Of a stretch of DNA of 64,000 nt, positions 14,727 to 34,165 are shown one piece after another. Each line of letters opens with the position of its first letter. Position 1 is the first letter of the stretch. Position numbers and translations under genes: made by a program. The DNA lies in contig CAVYJM010000011.1 in NCBI GenBank assembly GCA_963768855.1, forward strand, positions 64,001 through 128,000, given 5' to 3'. The notes beneath the pieces are model-generated. The model had not been told where the DNA came from. It saw nothing but the letters and a program-made list of their open reading frames with translations, and did no database searches. Source of the stretch: an uncultured Thermoplasmata archaeon (GTDB taxonomy: Archaea > Thermoplasmatota > Thermoplasmata > RBG-16-68-12).

Positions 14727-15053
14727 TCAGAGCTCGGCCCACTTCCCGTAGCCCTCCCAGACGCGCACGTGGGCCGGGAACTTGAGCGCCTCCCCGAGGC
14801 GTTTTGATATGAGCTCCGCGATGTTCTCGACGGTCGGGTACTCGAGGAAGGTGTTCCAGTCCTTGTGGTCGTACTCCGATAGAACGGAGCGCGTGACCTT
14901 CTTCAGCTCGGCGAAGTCGAGGAGCATGCCTCCCTTGTGCTCCCCCTCGATGAACACGTCGACTTGGTACGTGTGCCCATGGAAGGAGCCGCAGCGTTCA
15001 TGCCCGGGGAGGTGGTGCGCGCAGTCGATGTACTCCGTGATGCCGAGCTTCAT
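14727..15053 (-). CDS. queD: 6-carboxy-5,6,7,8-tetrahydropterin synthase
   Basis: AHHLP...C...HGHTY, YDH, PTVENIA. A TATA-like box about 27 nt upstream supports the start at 15053. Confidence 0.88.
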   Translation of the reverse strand: MKLGITEYIDCAHHLPGHERCGSFHGHTYQVDVFIEGEHKGGMLLDFAELKKVTRSVLSEYDHKDWNTFLEYPTVENIAELISKRLGEALKFPAHVRVWEGYGKWAEL

Positions 15054-15140
15054 GGGCGCGCCCAAGGGGTCGACGGCCATAAAGGTTGGCGGGGGGCTCC
15101 TCCCGCTGACCGCATGCCGCGGACCCGGACGACGGGTGCC

Positions 15141-15476
15141 CTAGACGGGCGTCACGGTCAGGAACTTGAGGGCGTCCGCGCCGTGCTGGACGAACTGGTG
15201 CTCCTCGTCGTCCTCGACCAGCAAGACCACGCCGGGCCGGAGCGGAATCTTCTTCCCGTCCACGATCGCGAGGCCGCGGCCCGCCGTGACGACGAGCTCG
15301 TGTTCCCACTTGTGGCGGTGCGCCACGGAATACCCGCCCTTCCCGAAGACGAGCTCGTGCACGGAGGTGTGCCGGGCGCCGTCTTCGCGGCCGACGAGCT
15401 GCCGCATCCGGACGTTGTGGCTGCCCTCTTCCAAGAAGCGGACCGGGGCGACCGACCGAACGGTGGTCGTATACAT
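15141..15476 (-). CDS. Cupin domain protein
   Basis: HRHKWEHE...H cupin metal motif; lies between queC and queD. Confidence 0.85.
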   Translation of the reverse strand: MYTTTVRSVAPVRFLEEGSHNVRMRQLVGREDGARHTSVHELVFGKGGYSVAHRHKWEHELVVTAGRGLAIVDGKKIPLRPGVVLLVEDDEEHQFVQHGADALKFLTVTPV

Positions 15477-15542
15477 TGGGGGGAGAGGGGAGGCGGGAGA
15501 CCGCATTAAGCTTTCGAGCGCCACGGCGCAATCGGCCCGCGC

Positions 15543-16196
15543 TCACTTCTCGTAGGGGACGGGATCCTCGAGCCCGAGGGCCGCAAACGCCTCCCGGCGC
15601 TCTCGGCAGGAGACGCAGGTGCCGCAGTGAACGTCCCGGTCCCAGTAGCAGGACCACGTGAGGCCGAACGGCACGCCGAGGTCCCGCCCCATCCGGAGGA
15701 CGTCCGCCTTGGACTTGCTGCTCAGCGGGACGACGACCTGCACGGGCGACCGGTCGAACGACCAGAGGCTCAGATGGAACATGCTGTTCAGGAACTCGAA
15801 GAATTTCGGGCTCGCGTCCGGGAAGGATTCTGGGTCGATGCCGTTGTGGCCCCCGACGAGGTACCGCGTGCCGTCCAGCTCCGCGTAGTACGCCGCGAGG
15901 CTGTAGAAGATCAGGTTCCGGGCCGGGATGTAGCCCTCCGGAGAATCCTCCAGGACGGGGTTCGCAAGTCCGCTCGACCGCAGGTCGTCGACCTCCTTGA
16001 GGAAGGGCAGCCCGACGGTCCGGACCGGCCGCACGCCCGCCTCCTTCACGAGGCCCTCGATCGCCGTGTGCTCGCGGCGGGGACGCCCGAAGTAGTCGAA
16101 CGTGAGCGGCTGGACGTCCCAGCCCTGCTTCTTCGTCCACCAGAGGGTGACGGCGGAATCGACGCCGCCGGAGAGAAGGACGATGGCGCGGTCCAT
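15543..16196 (-). CDS. queC: 7-cyano-7-deazaguanine (preQ0) synthase
   Basis: SGGVDS PP-loop, YIPARN, TWSCY...CGTCVSCRER zinc site. Confidence 0.93.
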   Translation of the reverse strand: MDRAIVLLSGGVDSAVTLWWTKKQGWDVQPLTFDYFGRPRREHTAIEGLVKEAGVRPVRTVGLPFLKEVDDLRSSGLANPVLEDSPEGYIPARNLIFYSLAAYYAELDGTRYLVGGHNGIDPESFPDASPKFFEFLNSMFHLSLWSFDRSPVQVVVPLSSKSKADVLRMGRDLGVPFGLTWSCYWDRDVHCGTCVSCRERREAFAALGLEDPVPYEK

Positions 16197-16257
16197 CCGG
16201 GTTCGCGAACTCACCGGCCCGGCCCTATAAGGAGTTTGTCCACATGGGGGCGGCACC

Positions 16258-17349
16258 TCAGTCCGCCGGAGGCGGCGGGAGGAAGAACGGGTGCCACAGG
16301 ACCTCGATTTCGTCCTCGACGCCGTCGAGCGGCTCGCCGTCCCAGTTGTCGAGCTTGTCCGCGTACCGGTCGATGAGGCATGCGAGGAGATGGCGGAGGC
16401 GCGGCACGATGTCCTCCGTCGCGCCCCGCGTCACGAGGACCGCGACGACGATGCCGCGATCGTTGCACAAGATGAAGCGATGGTCGCCGAGCGTCACTTC
16501 CTGTACGTCGTTCCCGTCCCGCTCGGAGAACGTCTCGCGCACGAAGTTGGATAGGACGCTGATCATCCCGCCGACGACGTCCCGGTCCTTGTCGGACATG
16601 AGCGTGCGGGACATGTGCTTGACCAGGAGACCGTTGGCCCCGATCACGAAGACTTCCTCGATCGCGGGCTCGAGATGGGCTGGCGCCGGAGGCTCGGGAG
16701 GCGGGGGAGGGACGGGCTCCGCGCGGCGCGGTGTGACGCCGGTGCTCCCGGCGGGCTTCCGGGCGGGCCGCAGGGACCACACCTCCGAGGCCCCGAAGGC
16801 CAGCAGGATGCAGAGGCCCAGGAGAAGGTACCACGCCGGGCCGGGGCCCCAGGTGAGGAGTGTGCTCGAGTTCCCGGAGACGATCTGCCCCTCGAACCCG
16901 GGGAGCGGATTCCCGTTGAGCTGGGGCAGATCCTCCGCGGCGACGGTGACTTGGAGGACCAGTTCGACCGGGACCAGGAGGGCGAGGAGGCAGCCGGACA
17001 CCAGGGCGAGGCCGGGGAACACGCCGCGGAGCTTGCGGCGCTGAGTGGCGAGGCTCAGGGCCATGGCGGCCACGATCGAGGCGAGGAGCCCCAGGAACTC
17101 GTATTGCATTTGCTCGAACAGGGAGGATATGTGGGCTTGGCCCGGTAGGTCTGGATACGTGAAGCTCGCGGTGGTCGCGTTCCCGAGGGTCTTGTTCTGA
17201 ATCGTGTGGGTCACGTCGAAGAGGCCGTAGGACCACGTCTCGATCTGGGTGCTGTCGGAGAGTCTCCATTCCCAGACGGGCTCCCCGACCGCGACGATGA
17301 CGACCGCGAGGGCGATCGCTGCGACGGCAATCCCGGACCACGCCGACAT
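16258..17349 (-). CDS. Four-TM claudin-like membrane protein fused through a Pro-rich linker to a C-terminal longin/roadblock-like domain
   Basis: TM1, W-x14-GLF, TM2, TM3, TWGPGPAWY-TM4, PPPPPEPP linker, then EEVFVI...DVVGGM...FVRETF...LDNWDG. Fold calls are inference. Confidence 0.7.
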   Translation of the reverse strand: MSAWSGIAVAAIALAVVIVAVGEPVWEWRLSDSTQIETWSYGLFDVTHTIQNKTLGNATTASFTYPDLPGQAHISSLFEQMQYEFLGLLASIVAAMALSLATQRRKLRGVFPGLALVSGCLLALLVPVELVLQVTVAAEDLPQLNGNPLPGFEGQIVSGNSSTLLTWGPGPAWYLLLGLCILLAFGASEVWSLRPARKPAGSTGVTPRRAEPVPPPPPEPPAPAHLEPAIEEVFVIGANGLLVKHMSRTLMSDKDRDVVGGMISVLSNFVRETFSERDGNDVQEVTLGDHRFILCNDRGIVVAVLVTRGATEDIVPRLRHLLACLIDRYADKLDNWDGEPLDGVEDEIEVLWHPFFLPPPPAD

Positions 17350-17438: not shown

Positions 17439-18218
17439 TCAGCTGTCCGTCCACCGCGGCTCGCGCTTCTCGAGGAAGGCCTGCACCCCCTCCTCCTTGT
17501 CCTTCGACGTGATCACGAGAGTGAACAGGGTCTGTTCATACCGGAGGCCCTGGTCCATCGGCAACCGGGTCGAAGCTTTCACGGCAGCCTTGGCGAGCCG
17601 CACCGCGACCATGCTCTTCGAGGCGATCTTCCCCGCGATCTCCTCGACGCGCTTGTCCAGGAGGGGATGCGCGACGACCTCGTCGACGAGCCCGATGCGC
17701 AGCGCTTCCTTGGCGTCGATCCGTTCGCCGCTCAGGGTGAGCTTGAGGGCCGTGCCCAGGCCGACGAGGCGCGGGAGCCGCTGGCTCCCGCCGCCCCCTG
17801 GCATGATTCCGATGTTGACCTCCGCCTGGCTGAAGAGGGCCCGCTCGGAGGCGATCCGGACGTCGCAGGCCAAGGCGACCTCGAGGCCCCCGCCGAAGCA
17901 GTAGCCATCGATGCGCGCGAGGATTGGCTTCGCCATCCGGTCCACCGCCTCGTAGACGCTGCCCCGCCGCTCCAGGTCCGCCTGCTCGACGAGCCCCCGT
18001 CCCTGGAACTCCTGGATGTCCGCACCCGCGATGAACGACCGGTCTCCCGCGCCCGTCAGCACGACGACGCGGACCGTGGGATCCGCGTCGAGCCCGTCGA
18101 GGACGCGGATGAGCTCGCCCTTCATCTCGAGGGACATCGCGTTGTGCTTCTCCGGCCGGTTGAGCGTCACGACCGCGATCGGCCCGCGGCGCTCCACGAG
18201 GACGAGGGACGAGGCCAT
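17439..18218 (-). CDS. Enoyl-CoA hydratase/isomerase (crotonase) family protein
   Basis: FIAGADI, GGGLEVALACD, AEVNIGIMPGGGGSQRL. Confidence 0.93.
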   Translation of the reverse strand: MASSLVLVERRGPIAVVTLNRPEKHNAMSLEMKGELIRVLDGLDADPTVRVVVLTGAGDRSFIAGADIQEFQGRGLVEQADLERRGSVYEAVDRMAKPILARIDGYCFGGGLEVALACDVRIASERALFSQAEVNIGIMPGGGGSQRLPRLVGLGTALKLTLSGERIDAKEALRIGLVDEVVAHPLLDKRVEEIAGKIASKSMVAVRLAKAAVKASTRLPMDQGLRYEQTLFTLVITSKDKEEGVQAFLEKREPRWTDS

Positions 18219-18267
18219 GAGATCGGCTGCGGGGAGGACGGCCGCGGATTTTAGGCCTTCCGAACAA

Positions 18268-18290
18268 ATCAACCTTGTTTAAGGTTGACT
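18268..18290 (-). promoter_or_regulatory. 23-bp dyad element (8-bp arms TCAACCTT/AAGGTTGA, 4-nt spacer), copy 1
   Basis: ATCAACCTTGTTTAAGGTTGACT is the exact reverse complement of 36027-36049. It lies 49 nt upstream of the crotonase ATG at 18218. Confidence 0.75.
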
Positions 18291-18325: not shown

Positions 18326-18805
18326 TCAGAGGAGCTTGTCCATGGTCAGGACGGTCGTCTGGAACCCGAGCTTCTTCCAGAACTCGACGCTCATGGCGTT
18401 CTTCGTGTCCGTGGCGACGCGCACCCGACTCACGCGCTTCTCCCCGAACCATCCGAGGGCGGCGGCCACCATCGAGCGGCCCACTCCCTTGCCGCGGTAG
18501 GGTTCCTGGACGTAGACCGCGGAGATGTGGCCGTACTTCCGCTCCATGAAGATTCCGGGCGGCTGCTCAAGGGAGGCGAGTAGGAATCCGGCCGGCTTCC
18601 CGCCGACCTCGGCGATCTGTGCCACGCGGTTCCGCGTACCGAGGAAAGAACGCAGGTGCCTCTCCCACTGCTCGGGCGCCCCCGTCGCGAGCCGGAAGTC
18701 CTGTCCCCCTAGGCTCTCGTCGAATCCGATCAGCTCGCGCCAGAGGCGGATGAGCTGCGGGAGGTCGTCCGCTTTCGCCGGATGAACCCGGAGGTCGAGG
18801 GCCAT
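18326..18805 (-). CDS. GNAT family N-acetyltransferase
   Basis: VYVQEPYRGKGVG acetyl-CoA motif, N..S..FW.KLGF. Confidence 0.92.
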   Translation of the reverse strand: MALDLRVHPAKADDLPQLIRLWRELIGFDESLGGQDFRLATGAPEQWERHLRSFLGTRNRVAQIAEVGGKPAGFLLASLEQPPGIFMERKYGHISAVYVQEPYRGKGVGRSMVAAALGWFGEKRVSRVRVATDTKNAMSVEFWKKLGFQTTVLTMDKLL

Positions 18806-18869: not shown

Positions 18870-19658
18870 TCACTTGCCCTGGAACTGCGGCTTGCGCTTC
18901 TCGAGGAAGGCCTTGAAGCCCTCCTTCGCGTCTGCCATGGAGAACAGCCTGTTCTGGAGTTCGCGCTCGAGCGCGAGGCCCTCGTGGAGCGGGACCTCGA
19001 TCCCTTCGGCGACGGATCGCTTGATCAGGCCGACGGCTCGCGCGGCATGGTTCGGGTACGCCAGGCCCTGGGCGAATGCCATCGTCTCCTCCCAGAACTT
19101 CTCCCTCGGGAAGACGCGGTTCAGGATGCCCCACTCGAGGGCCTCCTTCGGGGAAAGGGTGCGGCCCGTCGTCATCAGGTCAATCGCGCGGCTCTTGCCG
19201 ATGAGCCGCGGGAGGCGCTGGGTTCCGCCGGTCCCTGGGAGTACGCCCAGGGTCACCTCAGGCAACCCGATCTTCCAAGCCCCGTCCGAAGCGAAGCGGA
19301 GGTCCGCGGCGAGGGCGATCTCCAGGCCGCCTCCGACGCAGTGCCCGTCGATTGCTGCGATGAAGAGCTTCGGGGTGGACTCCATCTTGTTGAGGACCTC
19401 CTGGCAGTTCAGGCAGAACATCGCCTTGTACTCCGGCGTGGAGGTCGCGAGGAGGTTGATGTCTGCGCCCGAGGACCAGATCCCGTCGAGCTTCGAGGCG
19501 AACACGCAGAGGTCGATCGAGTCGTCGAAGCGCACCTCGTCGATCACGTTGCTGATGTCCCGCATGAGATCCGTGTCGTACGTGTTCATCTTCGGCTTGT
19601 TGAACCATGCGACGGCCACGCGGTCCTTCTTCTCCAAGGACATGTAGGTGAGGTCCAT
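18870..19658 (-). CDS. Crotonase-family protein resembling the BoxC N-terminal (ring-cleavage) domain
   Basis: GGGLEIALAAD and LPEVTLGVLPGTGG, plus BoxC-like KAMFCLNCQE and RFDD segments; immediately downstream of the BoxB-like gene. Confidence 0.8.
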   Translation of the reverse strand: MDLTYMSLEKKDRVAVAWFNKPKMNTYDTDLMRDISNVIDEVRFDDSIDLCVFASKLDGIWSSGADINLLATSTPEYKAMFCLNCQEVLNKMESTPKLFIAAIDGHCVGGGLEIALAADLRFASDGAWKIGLPEVTLGVLPGTGGTQRLPRLIGKSRAIDLMTTGRTLSPKEALEWGILNRVFPREKFWEETMAFAQGLAYPNHAARAVGLIKRSVAEGIEVPLHEGLALERELQNRLFSMADAKEGFKAFLEKRKPQFQGK

Positions 19659-19733
19659 CAGCTGCCCCTCGTCGCGTCCTATGATTGCGGCTTGTAATAA
19701 AGGATGGCCTATCCATGCGACGGCGGAGCGAAT

Positions 19734-21155
19734 TCAGGGGGCCGGCCGATGCACAGGCTCCGGCTCTCCCCACTTGTCGTTGAACAGGAACTCGTCCTTC
19801 ACGAACTGCCAGTGGCGGCTCGTCATGTATCGTTCCGGCAGGACGGTCTTGAGGTAGTCTGCGTAGTCCTGCCGCTCGATCGGCTTCCCGTCGTGGGTGA
19901 GCAGACTCCCGCGGACGTCGTACGGGAGGTACACGTAGCCCACGCCAGGCGAGTCGCTGCCCACGTTGCGGAAGTCTCCGTATTCCTGCAGGCCGCGGAT
20001 CCGGAAGAACCGCCGATCCGGCAGGAGCACGAGGTCGTCCTTGGTCATGCCGTGGAGCGTCTCGCCCGCCTCGAGCCGTGCCAGGACGCGCTTCGCCTCC
20101 TCCCGCGTGCAGCGGGCCTTCGAGGCGATCATTGCGAGGTTCACGTCCTCGACTTTGCCCTGCACCTCGGCGATGTAGATCGCCTGCGCTTCGCCGTTCG
20201 TCAGGGTCTTGAAGACTCCCTTGACGAGGCCTCCGCCGAGCTCGGAGCCGAACATCTCGAGGCCGCGGGGGTACCACATGTTGATCGTCCGCTGGAGATC
20301 CTCCACGCCGAAGTTGCCCCCGTCGTGAATGGCGGCCGCCCCGATCGCCTTCATGAGCGTCTCGCCGGCGGCGAGGTGGTACGACTCCTCCTTCCACCGC
20401 ATCCACGGCATGGAGACGGCCATGGGGCCGTACAGGAAGTGGTGCTGCATCTCGAGCTGGAACTTCCCGACGCGGTCGATCAGGCTCATGAACGTGGCGG
20501 AGTCCATGATGCTCTTGAACTCGATGTTGAAGGCGTCGAGCACGTGCTCGCCCGGCTTCATCGCGAAGAGCTCCTCCAGCGTCTCCGTGGCCCAGTGGTG
20601 TCCCCACCGCGCGCGGTCGAAGCTCGCGTCGAGGGTGAGGACGCCGGCCATCTGCATGTGGTGCCGCAGCTCCTCGACGCACACACGCTTCTTCGAGAAG
20701 GAGATCGCGTCGAGGCGGTGTCCGGTCGGGTCCGTGCGGTGCATGCCTTCCACGATCTCCCGGTCCAGGCCGTTCAGGGATCCGGAGTCGAGCTGCTCGT
20801 AGACCATGCGGTGCTGCTGGATGGACGCCAGTTCCGTGGACGCCTGGGCGCGGATGATCTTGAGCGCGGTCATGTACTGGCTGTCGGGCATGTCGTCGGC
20901 CTTCCAGACCCGCGTGGAGAGGTCGGCCGTTGCGTCCGTGGCCCCGACGACCTTGCGTGCGAAGTCCGCGAAGCCGTCGGGCTTTGCGAGGACGCAGGTC
21001 AGGAGCGGCATCGGCGTCGCCGGATAGTAGCGGGACCAGTTCGCCTCGTCGAGGACGACGGGCATCTCGGGGAAATACGATTCCTGCCAGGCCCGCCCCT
21101 CCTCCTGCCACTTCTTCGGCAGGGGCTCCATCCGGAACTGGTCGAGGAGGGCCAT
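19734..21155 (-). CDS. Ferritin-like diiron aryl-CoA epoxidase subunit (BoxB/PaaA-like)
   Basis: Ligand set STE / EELRH / IDRVGKFQL / KEESYH, plus INMWYPRGLEMFG; about 473 aa, the BoxB size class. Confidence 0.75.
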   Translation of the reverse strand: MALLDQFRMEPLPKKWQEEGRAWQESYFPEMPVVLDEANWSRYYPATPMPLLTCVLAKPDGFADFARKVVGATDATADLSTRVWKADDMPDSQYMTALKIIRAQASTELASIQQHRMVYEQLDSGSLNGLDREIVEGMHRTDPTGHRLDAISFSKKRVCVEELRHHMQMAGVLTLDASFDRARWGHHWATETLEELFAMKPGEHVLDAFNIEFKSIMDSATFMSLIDRVGKFQLEMQHHFLYGPMAVSMPWMRWKEESYHLAAGETLMKAIGAAAIHDGGNFGVEDLQRTINMWYPRGLEMFGSELGGGLVKGVFKTLTNGEAQAIYIAEVQGKVEDVNLAMIASKARCTREEAKRVLARLEAGETLHGMTKDDLVLLPDRRFFRIRGLQEYGDFRNVGSDSPGVGYVYLPYDVRGSLLTHDGKPIERQDYADYLKTVLPERYMTSRHWQFVKDEFLFNDKWGEPEPVHRPAP

Positions 21156-21242
21156 CGACCCGAACAATAGAGGTCCCGACGGATGAATCTTTCCGGGTCG
21201 CTCCGAGAATTCGGTTTGCCGAAATGGGCACCCGGCCGCAAT

Positions 21243-21998
21243 CTAGCGGGGCGCGAGGACCGCGATGTAGTCCCCGGGCGCGTACCCGCCTCCCCAGATG
21301 ACCCGCGCGAGTTCCCAACCGCTCTGGTGGGCGATCCTCGCGAGGTCCTCGGGGGACTGGAGCAGCAGGTCGAACCAGTCGCCCACATGGCCTTTGTACC
21401 GGACCCGCAGGGTGAGGAGCCCAGGCGGTCGGCCGCGCGCAATGTTCCGCTTCACATACGGGAGATGGTCCACGGACCAGGTGCCGGGGAGCTGGCTGTG
21501 GCCGACGAGCCGGCCTCCGCGACGAATCGCCGGGGCCAGGCGGCGGAAGAAGTCGCGCATGTGGGGCACGTCGCCCGCGAGTCCGAGGTTGTTGCCGAGC
21601 AGGAGGACCGTGTCGAACGTCCCGAGGCCCGCCGGGATCCGGCGGACGTTGCCGAGGTACACCTCCTGCACGCCCCGGATTCGCGCGAGGGCGACCTGCG
21701 TCGGCGACGCGTCGAGCCCGACGACGGCGTGGCCTTTGGACTGCAGGTAGAGCGCGTGGCGGCCCGGACCGCACCCGAGGTCCAGGACGCGTCCGCGGAC
21801 CTCCTTCATCGCCTCCCGCTCCATCCGCGGCCACTGGTTCGCCGTGCCGAAGTACGAGTGGAGCGCGGACAGGCTCCGGTACCCGTCCTCCCGCTCGAAC
21901 TCCACGCGGACGCGCTTGCCCATCCAGAAGTCCAGCATCGCCTGGGCGTAGAGCTCGAAGGACGATCCGGGTGGCGCCTTACTCCCGCGGCGGGGCAT
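21243..21998 (-). CDS. Class I SAM-dependent methyltransferase
   Basis: VLDLGCGPGRH, GLDAS, FDTVLLLGNNLG. Confidence 0.88.
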   Translation of the reverse strand: MPRRGSKAPPGSSFELYAQAMLDFWMGKRVRVEFEREDGYRSLSALHSYFGTANQWPRMEREAMKEVRGRVLDLGCGPGRHALYLQSKGHAVVGLDASPTQVALARIRGVQEVYLGNVRRIPAGLGTFDTVLLLGNNLGLAGDVPHMRDFFRRLAPAIRRGGRLVGHSQLPGTWSVDHLPYVKRNIARGRPPGLLTLRVRYKGHVGDWFDLLLQSPEDLARIAHQSGWELARVIWGGGYAPGDYIAVLAPR

Positions 21999-22128
21999 GG
22001 AAGCCGCGCGGGGATGGGCACCCCGGCTACATGACCTTTCTGCCCCGGCGGACGCGGCGCAGCTACAAGATAACCGCATGCGGCAAACTTTATCCGGGCG
22101 ACGGGCGTGAGGTCGCGGGGGAGCCGCC

Positions 22129-22275
22129 ATGGCCCGCACGCGCCGGGAATCGAAGTTCGAGGTGTTCGGGGAGGAGATGCTCGAGAAGGTGGTCGCCAAG
22201 AGCGGCAGCTCGGGGCGCGTCTACCTCCCGCCCGACTGGATCGGGAAGCGGGTCAAGGTCATCCGGGTCGATTGA
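22129..22275 (+). CDS. DUF2080-like small protein (48 aa; absent from the ORF track)
   Basis: Translated by hand: MARTRRESKFEVFGEEMLEKVVAKSGSSGRVYLPPDWIGKRVKVIRVD. Confidence 0.8.
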   Translation: MARTRRESKFEVFGEEMLEKVVAKSGSSGRVYLPPDWIGKRVKVIRVD

Positions 22276-28982: not shown

Positions 28983-29729
28983 TCACTGCTTGTACGCTTT
29001 CGCGATCGCCCACACGGTGAGCGGGTAGCCCTTTGGGTCCACGTTGTCGATGATCTCGTGCAGGACCTCGCGTGCCTTCGGCTTCGGCAGGCTTCCGAGG
29101 AATGTGCGCTTCTTGTGCGTCTTCATCCACTCACGGAACTCGTCCTGCTTCGTGACATACAGCGAGCGGACCGTCTTGTCGACGAACTGGACGCCGGACT
29201 TCGTGCCGATCTGGTCCGCATCGTAGTCGCGCTGGAGGAACTCGAAGAAGAACCACTCGTCGTCGAGGAGCTCCCGCGAGAAGCATTGGAGCAGCGGCCC
29301 GAAGGAGTCCTTGTCCTGGTAGATCGGTGTGAGGAACTCCGCGCCCTTCTTCTCCAGGTACGCCCGGAACTTCACGATGTCCGTCGTGCGGAGGGCGAGG
29401 TGTTGGATGTACGTCTTGGCCTCCCCTGCCGGCTTCCCATCGAACCCGAACTTGAACGGCGCCTGGCCCTGCGAGACTTCGTCGGGGGCGTCGATCCCGA
29501 AGACCATCGCGATCCGCTCGTTCGTGTAGGGGTGGTGGAAGGCGGAGGTCGCCATCCCCGTCTTCTCCTCGCCGACCCGCGGCGTCTCGTAGACGACGCG
29601 GTAGCCGTCGCTGACGAGGAAGTCCCGCAGGTTGTTGAACACGGTCATGTCGCGCACGAGCACGGTCTTGTGGTCCGGCTTCAGCTTCATGAATTCCGGG
29701 ACGGCCAATTGGATCCCCAGGCCGCGCAT
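28983..29729 (-). CDS. VOC-superfamily dioxygenase resembling the C-terminal catalytic half of 4-hydroxyphenylpyruvate dioxygenase
   Basis: DH...IQHLALRTTDI...GAEFL...LLQCFS...FFEFLQR, i.e. the His/His/Glu triad pattern; about 248 aa (or start at 29690). Confidence 0.7.
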   Translation of the reverse strand: MRGLGIQLAVPEFMKLKPDHKTVLVRDMTVFNNLRDFLVSDGYRVVYETPRVGEEKTGMATSAFHHPYTNERIAMVFGIDAPDEVSQGQAPFKFGFDGKPAGEAKTYIQHLALRTTDIVKFRAYLEKKGAEFLTPIYQDKDSFGPLLQCFSRELLDDEWFFFEFLQRDYDADQIGTKSGVQFVDKTVRSLYVTKQDEFREWMKTHKKRTFLGSLPKPKAREVLHEIIDNVDPKGYPLTVWAIAKAYKQ

Positions 29730-29793
29730 TGTCGGGCGATGTCCATAACCCTTGCGTGGTTGGATTTCGCATGACCGAAAATCGCACGGCGAT

Positions 29794-30804
29794 TCACGAG
29801 GTTCGCGCGATCGGGTTCGTGAGGATGCCGACTCCCTCGACCTCGAGCTCGACGATGTCCCCCGGGACGAGGTACGCCGCGGCATCGCCCTTTTCGAACT
29901 CGCACCCGCCGGGAATCGTCCCGCTCCCCCAGACCTCCCCCGCATGGACGGCCTGGCTCGCCGCGAGGAACGTGCCGAGTTCCTCGAACGACCAGGCGGC
30001 TCGCTGGCCCGCTTCGATCAGCGGGTTGCGGGTCACGAGGGTGCGGAGCCGGCCTGCGAGGCGCTGCACGCCGTTCACGCGGACTGCGACGCGCTGGTCG
30101 CGGAGGGCGCCGAACTCATCGCGCGTGACGACGCACGGGCCCAGGGCGTTCGCCCAGTCCTTCCCCACGGCGGGGCCCATCCCGACCCGCCCCGCGAGGG
30201 ACTGCAGGTCGCGCATCGAGAAGTCGTTGAAGATCGTCACCCCGAACAGGGACGGAGGGCCGCGGGTCCGGTCCGCGGTCGGGCCGACCACGTACCCGAT
30301 CTCCAGCTCGTAGTCGAGCTTCTGCGACGCGGTCTGGCTCCAGGTGCCGCCCTCGAAGGTCGCGAAGGTGGGGAACGGGACCGGTTCCCCGGGGCCCAGG
30401 AGGTTGAGCGCGTCCCCGTTGTAGTAGGCCGGGACGCGGTCCCACTCGGGGGGCACGCGGTCGCCGCGGGCGGCCCGGGTCCGCGCAATGTGCCCCCGGA
30501 AGGCGATGAAATCCCGCAGCAGCCGGGGCCACAGGGGTGCATGCAGGCGCACGCGGGCGGGATCGTGCGCGTAGGCGGGCCGGGACCGCGCGACGGCTCG
30601 CTCCGCCCGCCGCACGGCCGCCGTGGCCCGCCGCCATGCGCCTCCGGACAGGGTTCCGGCTGAATCGAGGAACGTGAGCATGTCGGAGGGCAGACGACGG
30701 TCCAATGCGTGCAGGTCCACGATCGTCTCCCATGCGTCCCAGGGGCCGAGGGCGGCACCCAGGCGCTCCGCCTCGCGCCCTCGCGAAAAGGTGAGGAGTC
30801 TCAT
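29794..30804 (-). CDS. fahA: Fumarylacetoacetate hydrolase family protein
   Basis: LRDFIAF, YYNG, LDYELEIG, IFNDFSMRDLQ, GKDW, GSGT; ATGA-coupled to the upstream gene. Confidence 0.85.
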   Translation of the reverse strand: MRLLTFSRGREAERLGAALGPWDAWETIVDLHALDRRLPSDMLTFLDSAGTLSGGAWRRATAAVRRAERAVARSRPAYAHDPARVRLHAPLWPRLLRDFIAFRGHIARTRAARGDRVPPEWDRVPAYYNGDALNLLGPGEPVPFPTFATFEGGTWSQTASQKLDYELEIGYVVGPTADRTRGPPSLFGVTIFNDFSMRDLQSLAGRVGMGPAVGKDWANALGPCVVTRDEFGALRDQRVAVRVNGVQRLAGRLRTLVTRNPLIEAGQRAAWSFEELGTFLAASQAVHAGEVWGSGTIPGGCEFEKGDAAAYLVPGDIVELEVEGVGILTNPIARTS

Positions 30805-31472
30805 GGGCCCCCACTCCCTAGGAGGCTCGTCCACGGCACCGGCGCTCCCTGCGACCGGCAGAGCGGACAACCCGCGGGCGCGAAGACCGGGATCTCCGCG
30901 CGGAGGGCGCTGTAGAAGCGGCCACCGAGGGTCGCCTCGGTCTCCGCAACCTTGGGCGCGGTCCCCTTGACGAAGACGGCGGCCGCCACGCGGGTCCCGC
31001 CGAGGCGCTCCACGAATTCGGGGAGGCGCTCGCCGACGCACCGCCCGGTGTGGCTCACCCCGTTGAGGACGAGCGCCCGGGCCCCGCGTTCGAGGCGTCC
31101 CTCCACGAGGCGGTCCCCGAATCGGCCGCTCGGGAGGTACTCCCAGTAGGCCGCGGGTCGCCCGACCGAACTGGCCACGGCGTCCGCGAGGACCCGGACC
31201 GCCGGCTGCGCGGGGGCGAACAGGACGTCGAACTCGATGTGCTCGCGGTCGATCCAAGCGACCAGATCCTCCCGGATCCAGTCGACGAAGCGCGGGTCCG
31301 CGGTCACCGGTTCCAGGAGGAAGAACCCCTGGAGATGGTTCCCCCGCTCGTCCGCGGGGTACCGATAATGCCCGTCCGGGTGGAACGGCCTCGCCGTGCG
31401 GAGGACTCTCTCGAGGTGTTCGCGCGGGAACGTCGCGGAGGTCGCGGTCAGCCGCTCGCCCAGGGAGTCCAT
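30801..31472 (-). CDS. Type I phosphoribosyltransferase-fold protein (PyrE-like) with a degenerate PRPP loop
   Basis: PyrE-like layout with C-terminal CPLC, but ALVLNGVSHTG in place of VLVVEDVxTTG. Confidence 0.7.
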   Translation of the reverse strand: MDSLGERLTATSATFPREHLERVLRTARPFHPDGHYRYPADERGNHLQGFFLLEPVTADPRFVDWIREDLVAWIDREHIEFDVLFAPAQPAVRVLADAVASSVGRPAAYWEYLPSGRFGDRLVEGRLERGARALVLNGVSHTGRCVGERLPEFVERLGGTRVAAAVFVKGTAPKVAETEATLGGRFYSALRAEIPVFAPAGCPLCRSQGAPVPWTSLLGSGGP

Positions 31473-31485
31473 CGTCCCGCCCCGG

Positions 31486-32739
31486 TCACGCGCTCGGGGA
31501 TTCCCATCCCGGGCCCGCGGCCTGCTCGGGTGCCCGGGCGTCGGACCAGCTCAGGACATACTCCGGGTCGCGGAACGCCCAGCCGTCCGTCGTGATGCGC
31601 ATGCTCTCGAAGTACGTGTCGAGCATGACCGCAAGGCGGGGCGAGACCGTGCCCCGGTCCGCGAGGGACCTCGCCGCGGCCTGGCCCTGCGGGCTGTGGG
31701 GCGTGGCCCCGGGGTGGAACGTGAACGAGCCCTCTTCGATCACTCCCTTGCGGGCCTCGTAGGCCATGTTGCAGAAGAACATGAGTTCGTCGCTGTCGAC
31801 GTTGAAGTGCGCGTAGGGCGCGGGCACCTCCTTGGGATTCCAGCCCTGCATGACGGGCACGAAGGAGCACAGGGAGAAGCCGTTGCTCGGCACGTTCCCG
31901 GACTGGAACGTCTGGTGCATCGGCGGCGCGGTGTGGATCTCCCGCGCGATCCCGTGGTGGCGGTGGATGTCGAAGAGGAACGGGTAGAGGGCGCCCTCCC
32001 ATCCGACGAGGTCGAACGGATGGTGGCCCAGGGTGATCCGCGTGATCTTCCCCCCGCCGAACTTCGCGTCCACCGGGAACTCCCCGCGCTCGTCCCGGTA
32101 CGGCGGCAACTCGGGCAGCTCGACCTCCGTCTCCACGACGGGGGACATGAGCGTCGCCTGGCCCCCCTTGTTGAAGTACTGCGGGGCGAACTGGATCGGA
32201 TACACCGATTCCACGAGGAGGAACCACGCCTTGTCCGTGTCGAGCTCGACGCGGTACGTCGTGCCCTTCGGGACCGAGACGTACACGTCCTTGCGGAACC
32301 GGAGGTCCCCGTACTCCGTGCGAAACCGCCCCTCGCCCTCCTGGACGAAGTAGATTTCGTGTCGCTCCCCATTGCGGAAGAACGTGTCCTCAGGCATGTC
32401 CTCCTTCGGCTTCGAGACGCCGAGCGACGTCCGGGGCCCCGCGACGATTGTCCTCCGGCCGCGGACCGCGTCCTTGTCGAAGGGCATTCGGCCCGTGCGG
32501 ATGTGGTGAGGCTGGAGGAGGTCCGCCTCGGGCGGGAACGCGGGCGCGAGATCGAAGTCTCCGCGCCGGGGTGCCTTCACCTGATCCGTCGGGTACGCGC
32601 GGACGTGGACCTTGCGGGACCAGGGTCCGCTGAAGCCATAGCTGCCGTGGATCTCCTCGAGGGCGAGGACGTCCGGGATCGCGTAGAACTCGGTGTGCGG
32701 TGTCGGCGGGACGGTACCCCGCTTCGCAATGAGGACCAT
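31486..32739 (-). CDS. hmgA: Homogentisate 1,2-dioxygenase
   Basis: FFRNGERHE, HHPFDLVGWEG, HTAPPMHQTF, HFNVDSDELMF, FHPGATPHSP with His/Glu/His iron ligands. Confidence 0.88.
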   Translation of the reverse strand: MVLIAKRGTVPPTPHTEFYAIPDVLALEEIHGSYGFSGPWSRKVHVRAYPTDQVKAPRRGDFDLAPAFPPEADLLQPHHIRTGRMPFDKDAVRGRRTIVAGPRTSLGVSKPKEDMPEDTFFRNGERHEIYFVQEGEGRFRTEYGDLRFRKDVYVSVPKGTTYRVELDTDKAWFLLVESVYPIQFAPQYFNKGGQATLMSPVVETEVELPELPPYRDERGEFPVDAKFGGGKITRITLGHHPFDLVGWEGALYPFLFDIHRHHGIAREIHTAPPMHQTFQSGNVPSNGFSLCSFVPVMQGWNPKEVPAPYAHFNVDSDELMFFCNMAYEARKGVIEEGSFTFHPGATPHSPQGQAAARSLADRGTVSPRLAVMLDTYFESMRITTDGWAFRDPEYVLSWSDARAPEQAAGPGWESPSA

Positions 32740-32851
32740 CGCGTGCTCCCCTAGCGCGACGTATGCCCCGGCCGGTCTTAAACTCGCGCCGCGGCGGCCG
32801 AGAGGTTCAAGTCCCACGGCGTCCTTGATGAGCGGGGGAAGCCAGGCCGCC

Positions 32852-34165
32852 ATGGGCGACGAGGCCCTCATCCACAACTACATCGTCGAGCGGAAACTGG
32901 GCGGCGGCCTTCCTGGGAAGATCACCCTCTGGGACGAGACCCTCCGCGACGGCGAGCAGACGCCGGGCGTCGCCTTCACCCCGGAGGAGAAGGTCACGAT
33001 CGCGACTCTCCTCGATGAGATGGGCGTCCCCCTGATGGACGTGGGCATCCCGGTCGTGTCCTCCGAGGAGGCGCGCGGCGTCAAGGCGATCGCGAACGCG
33101 GGCCTCGACGCGTCGATCATGGCCGCCGCCCGCGCGGTCCGCAGGGACGTCGAGGCGTGCGTCGACGCCGGCGTCGACGAAATCGCGCTGTTCATCGCCT
33201 GCTCCGACCTGCACATGAAGTACAAGCTCAACATGACGCGCGAACAGGTCCAGGAGGCCGCGGTCCGCGAGGTGACGTATGCGAAGGACCACGGGCTCAG
33301 GGTCTCCTTCGTGACGGAGGACACGTTCCGCGCGGACCTCGACTACGTGGTCGAGCTGTACAACGCGTGCATCGAGGCGGGAGCGACCCGCTGCGTGATC
33401 TGCGACACGGTCGGCGTCATGACGCCGGTCGGCATCCGGTGGTTCGTGGAGCAGGTCAAGCCCCGCCTCCGGCCGACCCAGCTCTCCTTCCACGGCCACA
33501 ACGACTTCGGGCTCGCGACTGCGAACAGCCTCGCGGCGGTCGAGGCGGGCGTCGAGGTGCCTCACACCTGCGTGAACGGGCTCGGAGAGCGTTCGGGGAA
33601 CGCGAGCTTCGAGGAGCTCGTCATGGCCCTCGAGGCGCTCTACGGCTACAAGACCGGCATCGACGTCTCGCGGATGTACGAGGTCTCGCGCCTCGTCGAG
33701 AAGCTGAGCGGCGTCCCGGTCGGGGTGAACAAGCCCGTGGTCGGCTACAACGCCTTCAGCCACGAATCCGGCATCCATGCCGACGGCGTGATCAAGCACA
33801 CGGCGACCTACGAGCCGATCCAGCCCGAGCGGATCGGGCGCACGCGGCAGTTCATCTACGGGAAGCACACGGGTTCCGCCTCGGTCGTTGAGAAGCTCCG
33901 GACGAACCAGGTCGAGGCGAGTCCAGACCAGGTCCAGGCGCTCGTGGTGCTCATCAAGGAGTACGCCGAGAGCAAGTCCAAGGTGGACCCGCAGGCGTTC
34001 ATCGAGCTCTTCCGCGAGCGGGAGGACCGCCGCCGCGGCATCACGGAGGAGGAGTTCTGGCTCCTCGCGAAGCGGGCCGGTCTCGCGGTGCCTCCGGACC
34101 GCGAGCCGAAGTTCCCACGGTACAGCCTCGAGCCCCCGAAGGAGTCCGGGACGGCCCTCCGGTAG
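32852..34165 (+). CDS. 2-isopropylmalate/homocitrate/citramalate synthase family protein (no C-terminal regulatory domain)
   Basis: DETLRDGEQ, HGHNDFGLA, NGLGERSGNA, HESGIHADG, GKHTG. Confidence 0.9.
   Translation: MGDEALIHNYIVERKLGGGLPGKITLWDETLRDGEQTPGVAFTPEEKVTIATLLDEMGVPLMDVGIPVVSSEEARGVKAIANAGLDASIMAAARAVRRDVEACVDAGVDEIALFIACSDLHMKYKLNMTREQVQEAAVREVTYAKDHGLRVSFVTEDTFRADLDYVVELYNACIEAGATRCVICDTVGVMTPVGIRWFVEQVKPRLRPTQLSFHGHNDFGLATANSLAAVEAGVEVPHTCVNGLGERSGNASFEELVMALEALYGYKTGIDVSRMYEVSRLVEKLSGVPVGVNKPVVGYNAFSHESGIHADGVIKHTATYEPIQPERIGRTRQFIYGKHTGSASVVEKLRTNQVEASPDQVQALVVLIKEYAESKSKVDPQAFIELFREREDRRRGITEEEFWLLAKRAGLAVPPDREPKFPRYSLEPPKESGTALR

Follow-up and report, generated by a model that had tools for sequence, protein, structure and literature searches.

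What would a protein carrying the diiron motifs of bacterial aryl-CoA epoxidases do in an archaeon? The question is raised by a coding sequence of 473 amino acids (AA) at positions 19734..21155, minus strand, of the window, by which we mean the whole 64,000-nucleotide stretch of DNA analysed here, from an uncultured Thermoplasmata archaeon (positions 64,001 to 128,000 of contig CAVYJM010000011.1, assembly GCA_963768855.1). BoxB and PaaA define a 'hybrid' aerobic way of degrading aromatics when oxygen is low, and we know of no characterised diiron aryl-CoA epoxidase other than these two, both of which are bacterial. In this work we find that the window protein has a BoxB-like fold, a complete and invariant E/ExxH/D/ExxH site and conserved counterparts of the BoxB residues that hold the thioester carbonyl and lie beside the ring. 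On balance we lean towards the reading that it is a stand-alone, probably monomeric, O2-activating diiron oxygenase of a third, uncharacterised family of BoxB/PaaA-type acyl-CoA oxygenases, which would act on an aryl- or acyl-CoA together with ECH1, the crotonase encoded next to it. Literature searches returned nothing on this oxygenase family or on an archaeal Box pathway.

The gene itself is well delimited. The minus-strand open reading frame (ORF) 19734-21167 is open throughout in translation, with the stop codon at 19734-19736, and a start at the ATG at 21155 agrees with the N-terminal methionine of all homologues in a 20-sequence alignment; the in-frame TTG at 21167 is an unlikely alternative. 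A plus-strand ORF (19704-21170) was discarded as a shadow frame on codon-position G+C, the third-position value being 0.93 on the minus frame in a window whose G+C content is 64-72%. All the motifs quoted in the initial annotation are present in the translation, namely AQASTELASIQQH, VEELRH, IDRVGKFQL, KEESYH, INMWYPRGLEMFG and LPDRRFFR...DGKPI, and the likeness to BoxB that it had seen at the C terminus is real: an LPxxxFxRxxG motif aligns, and the structural alignment covers residues 7 to 446 of the model.

In BoxB the diiron ligands are E120, E150, H153, D211, E240 and H243, and in the second shell Q116 hydrogen-bonds the substrate while T119, S123, F193, F203/F206 and T210 orient the benzoyl group (PMC5489048). 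Mapping by a phmmer alignment to BoxB 3PER (crystal numbering), combined with the ligand list of the same paper, recovers the full ligand set that had been proposed from the motifs: E108 corresponds to E120, E162 to E150, H165 to H153, D227 to D211, E257 to E240 and H260 to H243, and none of the six residues varies among 20 sequences whose identity goes down to 31%. On the minus strand, the codons of Q104-x-x-T107-E108 (20832..20846) hold the first iron ligand together with the Gln and Thr matching thioester-positioning residues of BoxB, and that of S111 (20823-20825) the Ser of the same BoxB-type set, both stretches being invariant; they are followed by the first ExxH, E161-E162-L-R-H165 (20661..20675), with E162 as bridging ligand and H165 as ligand, by the pocket wall and Asp ligand from F209 to D227 (20475..20531), and by the second ExxH, E256-E257-S-Y-H260 (20376..20390), with ligands E257 and H260. 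Each of these positions was placed on the 3PER alignment and checked codon by codon. The extra stretch noticed earlier between the first two ligand helices also holds, since 54 residues separate E108 from E162 compared with 30 in BoxB. It corresponds to a helical insert of about 35 AA (residues 118-153; 20697..20804, minus strand) that is gapped in all five bacterial relatives aligned and is restricted to the archaeal clade; in the structure model, helices are predicted at residues 129-141 and 147-174.

The pocket combines conservation and change. In the alignment Q116, T119, S123, F193 and F206 of BoxB are retained as Q104, T107, S111, F209 and F222, whereas W200, F203, F204 and T210 are replaced by I216, S219, A220 and I226. 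The QxxTExxS and AFN motifs are common to the oxygenase, BoxB, BoxB-like and SSO1313-like proteins, and are absent from E. coli PaaA. From these residues we infer a BoxB-type thioester-binding site with a roomier or differently shaped acyl pocket. The suggestion that the acyl-CoA substrate might be a new one is plausible for the same reason, because the pocket departs from that of BoxB at four residues, and a substrate other than benzoyl-CoA would fit such a departure.

Profiles and predicted fold place the protein near BoxB and PaaA and inside neither. The BoxB model TIGR03225 gives 26.9 bits against a cut-off of 499.1 and matches only residues 161-309, whereas true BoxB representatives reach 672 bits; the PaaA model TIGR02156 gives 17.9 bits against 280, and Pfam PF05138 (PaaA_PaaC) 21.5 bits against 28.5. 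The comparison with hidden Markov models (HMMs) of BoxB and PaaA, which had been proposed as a check, therefore leaves the protein below the curated cut-offs for both. Among solved structures the only sequence matches are BoxB (3PER, E = 2e-4) and SSO1313 (4MUD). An AlphaFold model built on the 20-sequence alignment (predicted local distance difference test score 85, predicted template-modelling score 0.86) forms a ferritin-like four-helix bundle with two (D/E)...ExxH motifs, and its first eleven Foldseek matches are BoxB chains; the N- and C-terminal extensions of BoxB are present in the model, and no solved structure is closer to it than BoxB along the whole protein. The nearest relatives in fold and sequence are BoxB and then PaaA, and not MiaE, a desaturase or ribonucleotide reductase R2. 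The family motifs QxSTE(L/F)GSIQQH, EE(L/F)RH, HVLDAFN, IDxVGK(Y/F)QL and EMFG are all carried, in a family of about 395-515 AA that is sister to BoxB and BoxB-like proteins, has no curated model and has its members in Thermoplasmata and Acidobacteriota. A search for fusions found no homologue longer than 828 AA, which is weak evidence, and the bacterial relatives of 441-735 AA have no recognisable additional Pfam domain.

Set beside the known systems, the window protein is only about 19-23% identical to BoxB of Azoarcus evansii (3PER/3PM5/3Q1G; TIGR03225). BoxB has a loop of about 40 AA after 'GLKGR' that is missing here, while the archaeal form has the 35-AA helical insert; the window protein also differs in its separate clade, in its four pocket substitutions and in a genome without BoxA or BoxC. 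With PaaA of the E. coli PaaABC(D)E system (3PW1/3PVR; TIGR02156; PF05138) it shares a diiron core with an Asp ligand, the EESxH and EMFG-type motifs and, by analogy, perhaps CoA-thioester chemistry. SSO1313-type proteins (Sulfolobus solfataricus, 4MUD), whose function is to our knowledge unpublished, consist of the core only (235-290 AA), belong to a different clade and, unlike the window protein, clear the Pfam PaaA_PaaC threshold, with 113 bits.

Phylogeny points in the same direction. When 1.84 billion cluster representatives were searched exhaustively with HMMER, only 155 matched. A single full-length archaeal representative, 62% identical, stands above a second tier of 395-515 AA at about 40% identity, and true BoxB emerged only at E ~1e-4; pairwise scores likewise set the target and the second tier apart from BoxB and, further off, PaaA. 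In a careful IQ-TREE analysis (34 sequences, 420 columns), with which a quick tree agreed, the oxygenase family is separate at 100/99 support, and its sister (99/91) is formed by true BoxB and shorter BoxB-like proteins, PaaA-like sequences lying outside. An exclusive clade with true BoxB is rejected (approximately unbiased (AU) test, p = 8e-5, at a cost of 44.7 log-likelihood units), for a group that was named only after the first quick tree had been seen. Mixed BoxB/PaaA features are thus a fair description of a protein that sits in a third clade, neither BoxB nor PaaA. The archaeal clade (100/100) is nested among second-tier sequences from Acidobacteriota (91/88 and 94/87), which suggests, short of proof, that it was acquired from bacteria. 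The BoxB-like proteins of 297-378 AA (P0192, P0204, P0207, P0217, P0231 and P0244) group with true BoxB at 100/100 and score about 170-215 bits against a true BoxB representative; they are apparently another uncharacterised branch.

The protein is no isolated archaeal oddity: it represents a large Thermoplasmata family with an Acidobacteriota branch, from which the archaeal clade is apparently derived. More than 2400 close homologues (65-92% identity) were found, mostly in Thermoplasmata metagenome-assembled genomes (MAGs), and their sources label them inconsistently as PaaA, BoxB or hypothetical. Among GTDB species representatives, 416 loci were confirmed by tblastn, in Thermoplasmata from soil, groundwater and sediment and, at 36-40% identity, in Acidobacteriota (Blastocatellia, Thermoanaerobaculia, Chloracidobacterium), and the window stretch itself is represented in wetland and freshwater-sediment metagenomes. 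Within the class the oxygenase is an accessory gene, gained or lost inside genera: of 151 class genomes with a completeness of 85% or more, 10 have the full-length form, and its presence varies inside four genera.

Nor is the oxygenase without a partner. A specific crotonase of a distinct subfamily, ECH1 (262 AA; 18870..19658, minus strand; Pfam ECH_1, 182 bits), lies 75 bp downstream and tracks it across genomes. ECH1 adjoins the oxygenase within the genus and lies 6-8 kb away in a clade of about 70% identity (L042, L044). Among 16 other genomes of the order, ECH1 orthologues (at least 59% identity) occur in all four that have the oxygenase and in two of the 12 that do not, and five more oxygenase-bearing genomes, two of them from Acidobacteriota, have one clear ECH1 orthologue each, unlinked. 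In the class sample, where the orthologues score 390 bits or more (322 for one cut off at a contig end) and other crotonases at most 245, ECH1 is found in 27 of 151 genomes: in 25 of the 25 that encode either the long oxygenase or a short SSO1313-type protein, and in two of the 126 others. Fifteen of these 25 genomes, all from family f15, lack the long form and have instead an SSO1313-type protein of 280-292 AA (113 bits on PF05138, 125 bits on 4MUD), whose gene lies directly downstream of the ECH1 orthologue in 14 of the 15. At the three loci read, the two genes are translationally coupled, overlapping by 4 nt at one extreme and standing 12 nt apart at the other (L107:6218-7884, L108:5887-7549, L109:6226-7863), and a 4HBT (hotdog) thioesterase gene is close to the pair. 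In genus g26 of f15 it is the long form that is present, and 6.4 kb separate it from ECH1. The same crotonase is thus tied to two different diiron proteins of one superfamily, in two gene orders. The short gene coupled to ECH1 also supplies a genomic context for 4MUD.

ECH1 is the best match to BoxC in its genome (86 bits, the next 48), and it has both catalytic Glu residues in GGGLE and PEV motifs, as read by eye in the alignment. Its nearest structure is an uncharacterised Geobacillus protein (2PPY, 258 bits), with BoxC 2W3P at 88 bits. It resembles BoxC (benzoyl-CoA-dihydrodiol lyase, 2W3P) and oxepin-CoA hydrolases in its crotonase fold and in its genomic tie to a diiron acyl-CoA oxygenase, and an aldehyde dehydrogenase accompanies its bacterial orthologues, as BoxD accompanies BoxC. 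By its sequence it is nevertheless not a BoxC orthologue, being closer to generic enoyl-CoA hydratases (206 bits) and to 2PPY than to BoxC. It has a single domain of 262 AA compared with the two domains (about 550 AA) of BoxC, and scores 86 bits against a BoxC cut-off of 712. The bacterial orthologues (62-65% identity) directly follow the aldehyde dehydrogenase gene (betaine-aldehyde/StyD-like), as a conserved pair, in Bipolaricaulota and in another MAG (L110:3992-6789, L111:4486-6783), and in one case lie 3.7 kb from a paaA/B/D/C-like cluster; in the window's genome this dehydrogenase has no clear single orthologue, as the best match is at 44% identity and paralogues score close to it. The ECH1 pattern parallels the gene sets BoxB-BoxC-BoxD and PaaABCE-PaaG/PaaZ (PMC4498308), and this parallel is the strongest argument that the product of the oxygenase would be a reactive CoA ester passed to a crotonase. 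Together, the oxygenase and ECH1 point to an undescribed CoA-dependent, oxygen-using pathway in archaea.

How the diiron site would be reduced is less evident. The initial annotation had remarked that no BoxA, PaaE or other Paa subunit gene is adjacent, and this observation extends, for BoxA, PaaE and a second PaaA/PaaC-like protein, to the whole genome (2.87 Mb, 93.6% complete). The search for BoxA gave only ferredoxin-domain matches of 38 bits or less against a cut-off of 459, the best match to PaaE reached 77.6 bits against 420.8, and a second PF05138 gene is absent, PaaB and PaaD having had no search of their own. A genome with neither BoxA nor PaaE implies that the electron donor must be something else, and so supports the idea of a non-standard donor. 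The sole FNR/PaaE-like reductase match, the one at 77.6 bits, lies outside the window (G000:C10:72000-72743) and has an in-frame TGA, which could mean a pseudogene, a sequencing error or recoding. Ferredoxin domains are plentiful in the genome. In one archaeal subclade, a Cys-rich ORF of 57-70 AA (CxxCG...WC...CRxC; 68-71% identity) overlaps or abuts the oxygenase stop codon (L046:4650-4823, L047:1813-2001, L048:2018-2227, L049:9383-9595, L050:4102-4314) and could encode a rubredoxin-like or zinc-ribbon accessory protein; we rejected it as a general electron donor, as it is confined to these five loci, belongs to no Pfam family and has no homologue in the window's genome. As for the other pathway components, the best BoxC match is ECH1 itself, PaaK phenylacetate-CoA ligase was not found in the genome, and the ligase near the oxygenase is of the FadD type, with 623 bits compared with 274 on the benzoate-CoA ligase model. 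The genome also encodes a haem-copper oxidase (529 bits), which makes an O2-dependent enzyme sensible in this organism, and the alpha subunit of indolepyruvate:ferredoxin oxidoreductase (732 bits, over the cut-off), an enzyme that is an established source of arylacetyl-CoA in archaea. Three metatranscriptome libraries hold contigs with 88-98% likeness to the oxygenase and ECH1 genes; they show only that similar sequence is present, which is consistent with expression and does not prove it.

These elements can be assembled into a putative reaction scheme. The oxygenase would bind a CoA thioester. Its acid would be aromatic, or unsaturated and of similar size, and may be bulkier than benzoate or substituted differently from it because four bulky pocket residues of BoxB become smaller or aliphatic. 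The two irons would be reduced by a donor other than BoxA or PaaE, most likely a ferredoxin-type carrier, and one oxygen atom would be inserted by ring epoxidation or hydroxylation. The reactive product would go to ECH1 for hydrolysis or isomerisation, as happens with BoxC and PaaG/PaaZ in the bacterial hybrid pathways. Arylacetyl-CoA formed by way of the genome's indolepyruvate:ferredoxin oxidoreductase might, speculatively, be a source of substrate. A more specific version of this scheme, which we put forward only tentatively and regard as doubtful, is an undescribed minimal CoA-epoxide hybrid pathway for aromatics in Thermoplasmata (and Acidobacteriota), in which the long or the short diiron oxygenase would interchangeably epoxidise an aryl-CoA by way of ferredoxin instead of a dedicated reductase, and single-domain ECH1 would open the ring.

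Several observations weigh against the favoured reading of an acyl-CoA oxygenase that works with ECH1. ECH1 scores 206 bits on generic enoyl-CoA hydratase models, compared with 86 for BoxC, 123 for PaaG and 118 for the alternative oxepin-CoA hydrolase, all under their cut-offs. Two class genomes carry ECH1 without a diiron gene, and the co-occurrence counts come from related genomes, perhaps six lineages, so that they overstate independence. ECH1 remains paired with ECH2, a second crotonase encoded further downstream, where the oxygenase is unlinked, and outside the genus, at distant archaeal and bacterial loci, the neighbours of the oxygenase have no relation to acyl-CoA metabolism. The gaps 19659-19733 and 21156-21242 each contain AT-rich, TATA-like boxes (TTTATTA; AAAGATTCAT) about 30-40 nt ahead of the next start codon, which suggests that the oxygenase and ECH1 are transcribed separately and almost without leaders.

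The same evidence bears on three other explanations. It is unlikely, yet deserving of more weight than the remaining two, that the enzyme oxygenates or desaturates a non-aromatic substrate or one that is not a CoA thioester, such as an aliphatic or isoprenoid acyl-CoA, a quinone or lipid precursor or an amino-acid derivative, and that the link with ECH1 reflects ordinary beta-oxidation-type chemistry. The variable neighbours outside the genus, which include a UbiA prenyltransferase and haem-biosynthesis genes, the proline dehydrogenase beside or fused with bacterial relatives, and the generic short-chain hydratase character of both ECH1 and ECH2 by HMM would all be in line with this view, and the 59-92% conservation across the order would also fit a central rather than a peripheral catabolic role. 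Against it, the thioester-bonding Gln and the two ring-flanking Phe residues of BoxB are invariant or nearly so, the sole characterised relatives use aryl-CoA, and a gene present in 10 of 151 class genomes, with gains and losses within genera, is accessory and not core. Less probable still is a ferritin-like protective or redox protein with no oxygenase activity on a substrate, serving in peroxide or oxygen detoxification, in iron handling or as an R2lox-type ligand-binding oxidase. We judge this very improbable, even though the gene stands alone without a reductase, one bacterial relative has a redoxin gene upstream, and ferritin-like folds have many such roles, R2lox and others appearing lower in the fold list.

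Between these two in probability, and in our view improbable, is a true analogue of BoxB, that is, a benzoyl-CoA 2,3-epoxidase in a minimal archaeal Box pathway in which ECH1 would stand for BoxC and a ferredoxin for BoxA. That BoxB comes closest among solved structures along the whole protein, that the Q, T, S, F and F residues positioning thioester and ring are retained, that the most BoxC-like crotonase of the genome tracks the oxygenase and that ECH2 resembles PaaF (242 bits, below the cut-off of 371) all speak for it. However, the BoxB HMM gives 26.9 of the required 499 bits and a clade shared with true BoxB alone fails the AU test (p = 8e-5); four pocket residues differ, including the benzoyl-orienting F203 and T210; the genome has no BoxA, no BoxC above the cut-off and no evident benzoate-CoA ligase, the nearby ligase being FadD-like (623 vs 274 bits).

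The remaining neighbours add little to the assignment. The gene order in the genus is methyltransferase, oxygenase, ECH1, GNAT, ECH2, membrane protein, QueC, cupin, QueD. The methyltransferase upstream of the oxygenase is S-adenosylmethionine-dependent (21243..22199, minus strand) and syntenic only within the genus; the GNAT acetyltransferase (18326..18805, minus strand, profile match) lies between the two crotonase genes, and a GNAT gene also adjoins one bacterial relative and, weakly, is seen in L101. ECH2 (17439..18272, minus strand, profile match) is PaaF- or short-chain hydratase-like, its PaaF score being on the 2,3-dehydroadipyl-CoA hydratase model. The methyltransferase, GNAT, QueC/cupin/QueD and an AMP-ligase were set aside as functional evidence because synteny holds only among genomes with an oxygenase of 76% identity or more, a range in which a conserved block reflects shared ancestry rather than selection. 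Outside the genus the neighbours are UbiA, NosD-like, MFS transporter, Crp, haem-biosynthesis, HD-GYP, DUF5777 and proline dehydrogenase genes. The last of these (P0137) follows oxygenase relatives in bacteria (L019:8001-10473), and the C terminus of P0168 gives a weak proline dehydrogenase match (NCBIfam, 30.6 bits against a cut-off of 500) and no Pfam match, maybe from read-through.

Further away in the window, a homogentisate-dioxygenase-like gene of divergent sequence (HgmA_N, 30.5 bits) and a gene for an FAA hydrolase lie within 28983-32877, 8-12 kb from the oxygenase, and confirm an O2-dependent aromatic ring-cleavage cluster. Like the haem-copper oxidase, the dioxygenase-like gene makes the use of oxygen plausible. 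No Pfam family was found for the gene at 30801-31472 between them or for the 320-AA ORF at 28983-29945. The homogentisate-type genes were not treated as linked to the oxygenase, as a relative with 80% identity (L002) has no called HgmA or FAH gene in the 10 kb upstream of its oxygenase. At 14727-16256, QueC and a PTPS/QueD-type gene flank a small cupin gene (15141-15524), a trio kept throughout the genus. A 363-AA protein encoded at 16258-17349, with only a sub-threshold Roadblock/LC7 match, is likewise conserved within the genus at its place downstream of ECH2.

A third family at the depth of BoxB and PaaA would extend this type of chemistry to archaea and to new substrates, in a group that is abundant in uncultured Thermoplasmata of soil, wetland and groundwater and in Acidobacteriota. 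Since pipelines are inconsistent in calling its members PaaA, BoxB or hypothetical, it is unreliable to infer 'benzoyl-CoA' or 'phenylacetate' degradation by these archaea from metagenomes. The absence of a dedicated reductase raises the question of how the diiron site gets reduced, and the tight tie to one crotonase subfamily defines a concrete, clonable two-gene unit. Should the more tentative hybrid-pathway scheme hold, archaea would have their first counterpart to the Box/Paa strategy, and the orphan structure 4MUD would gain a function.

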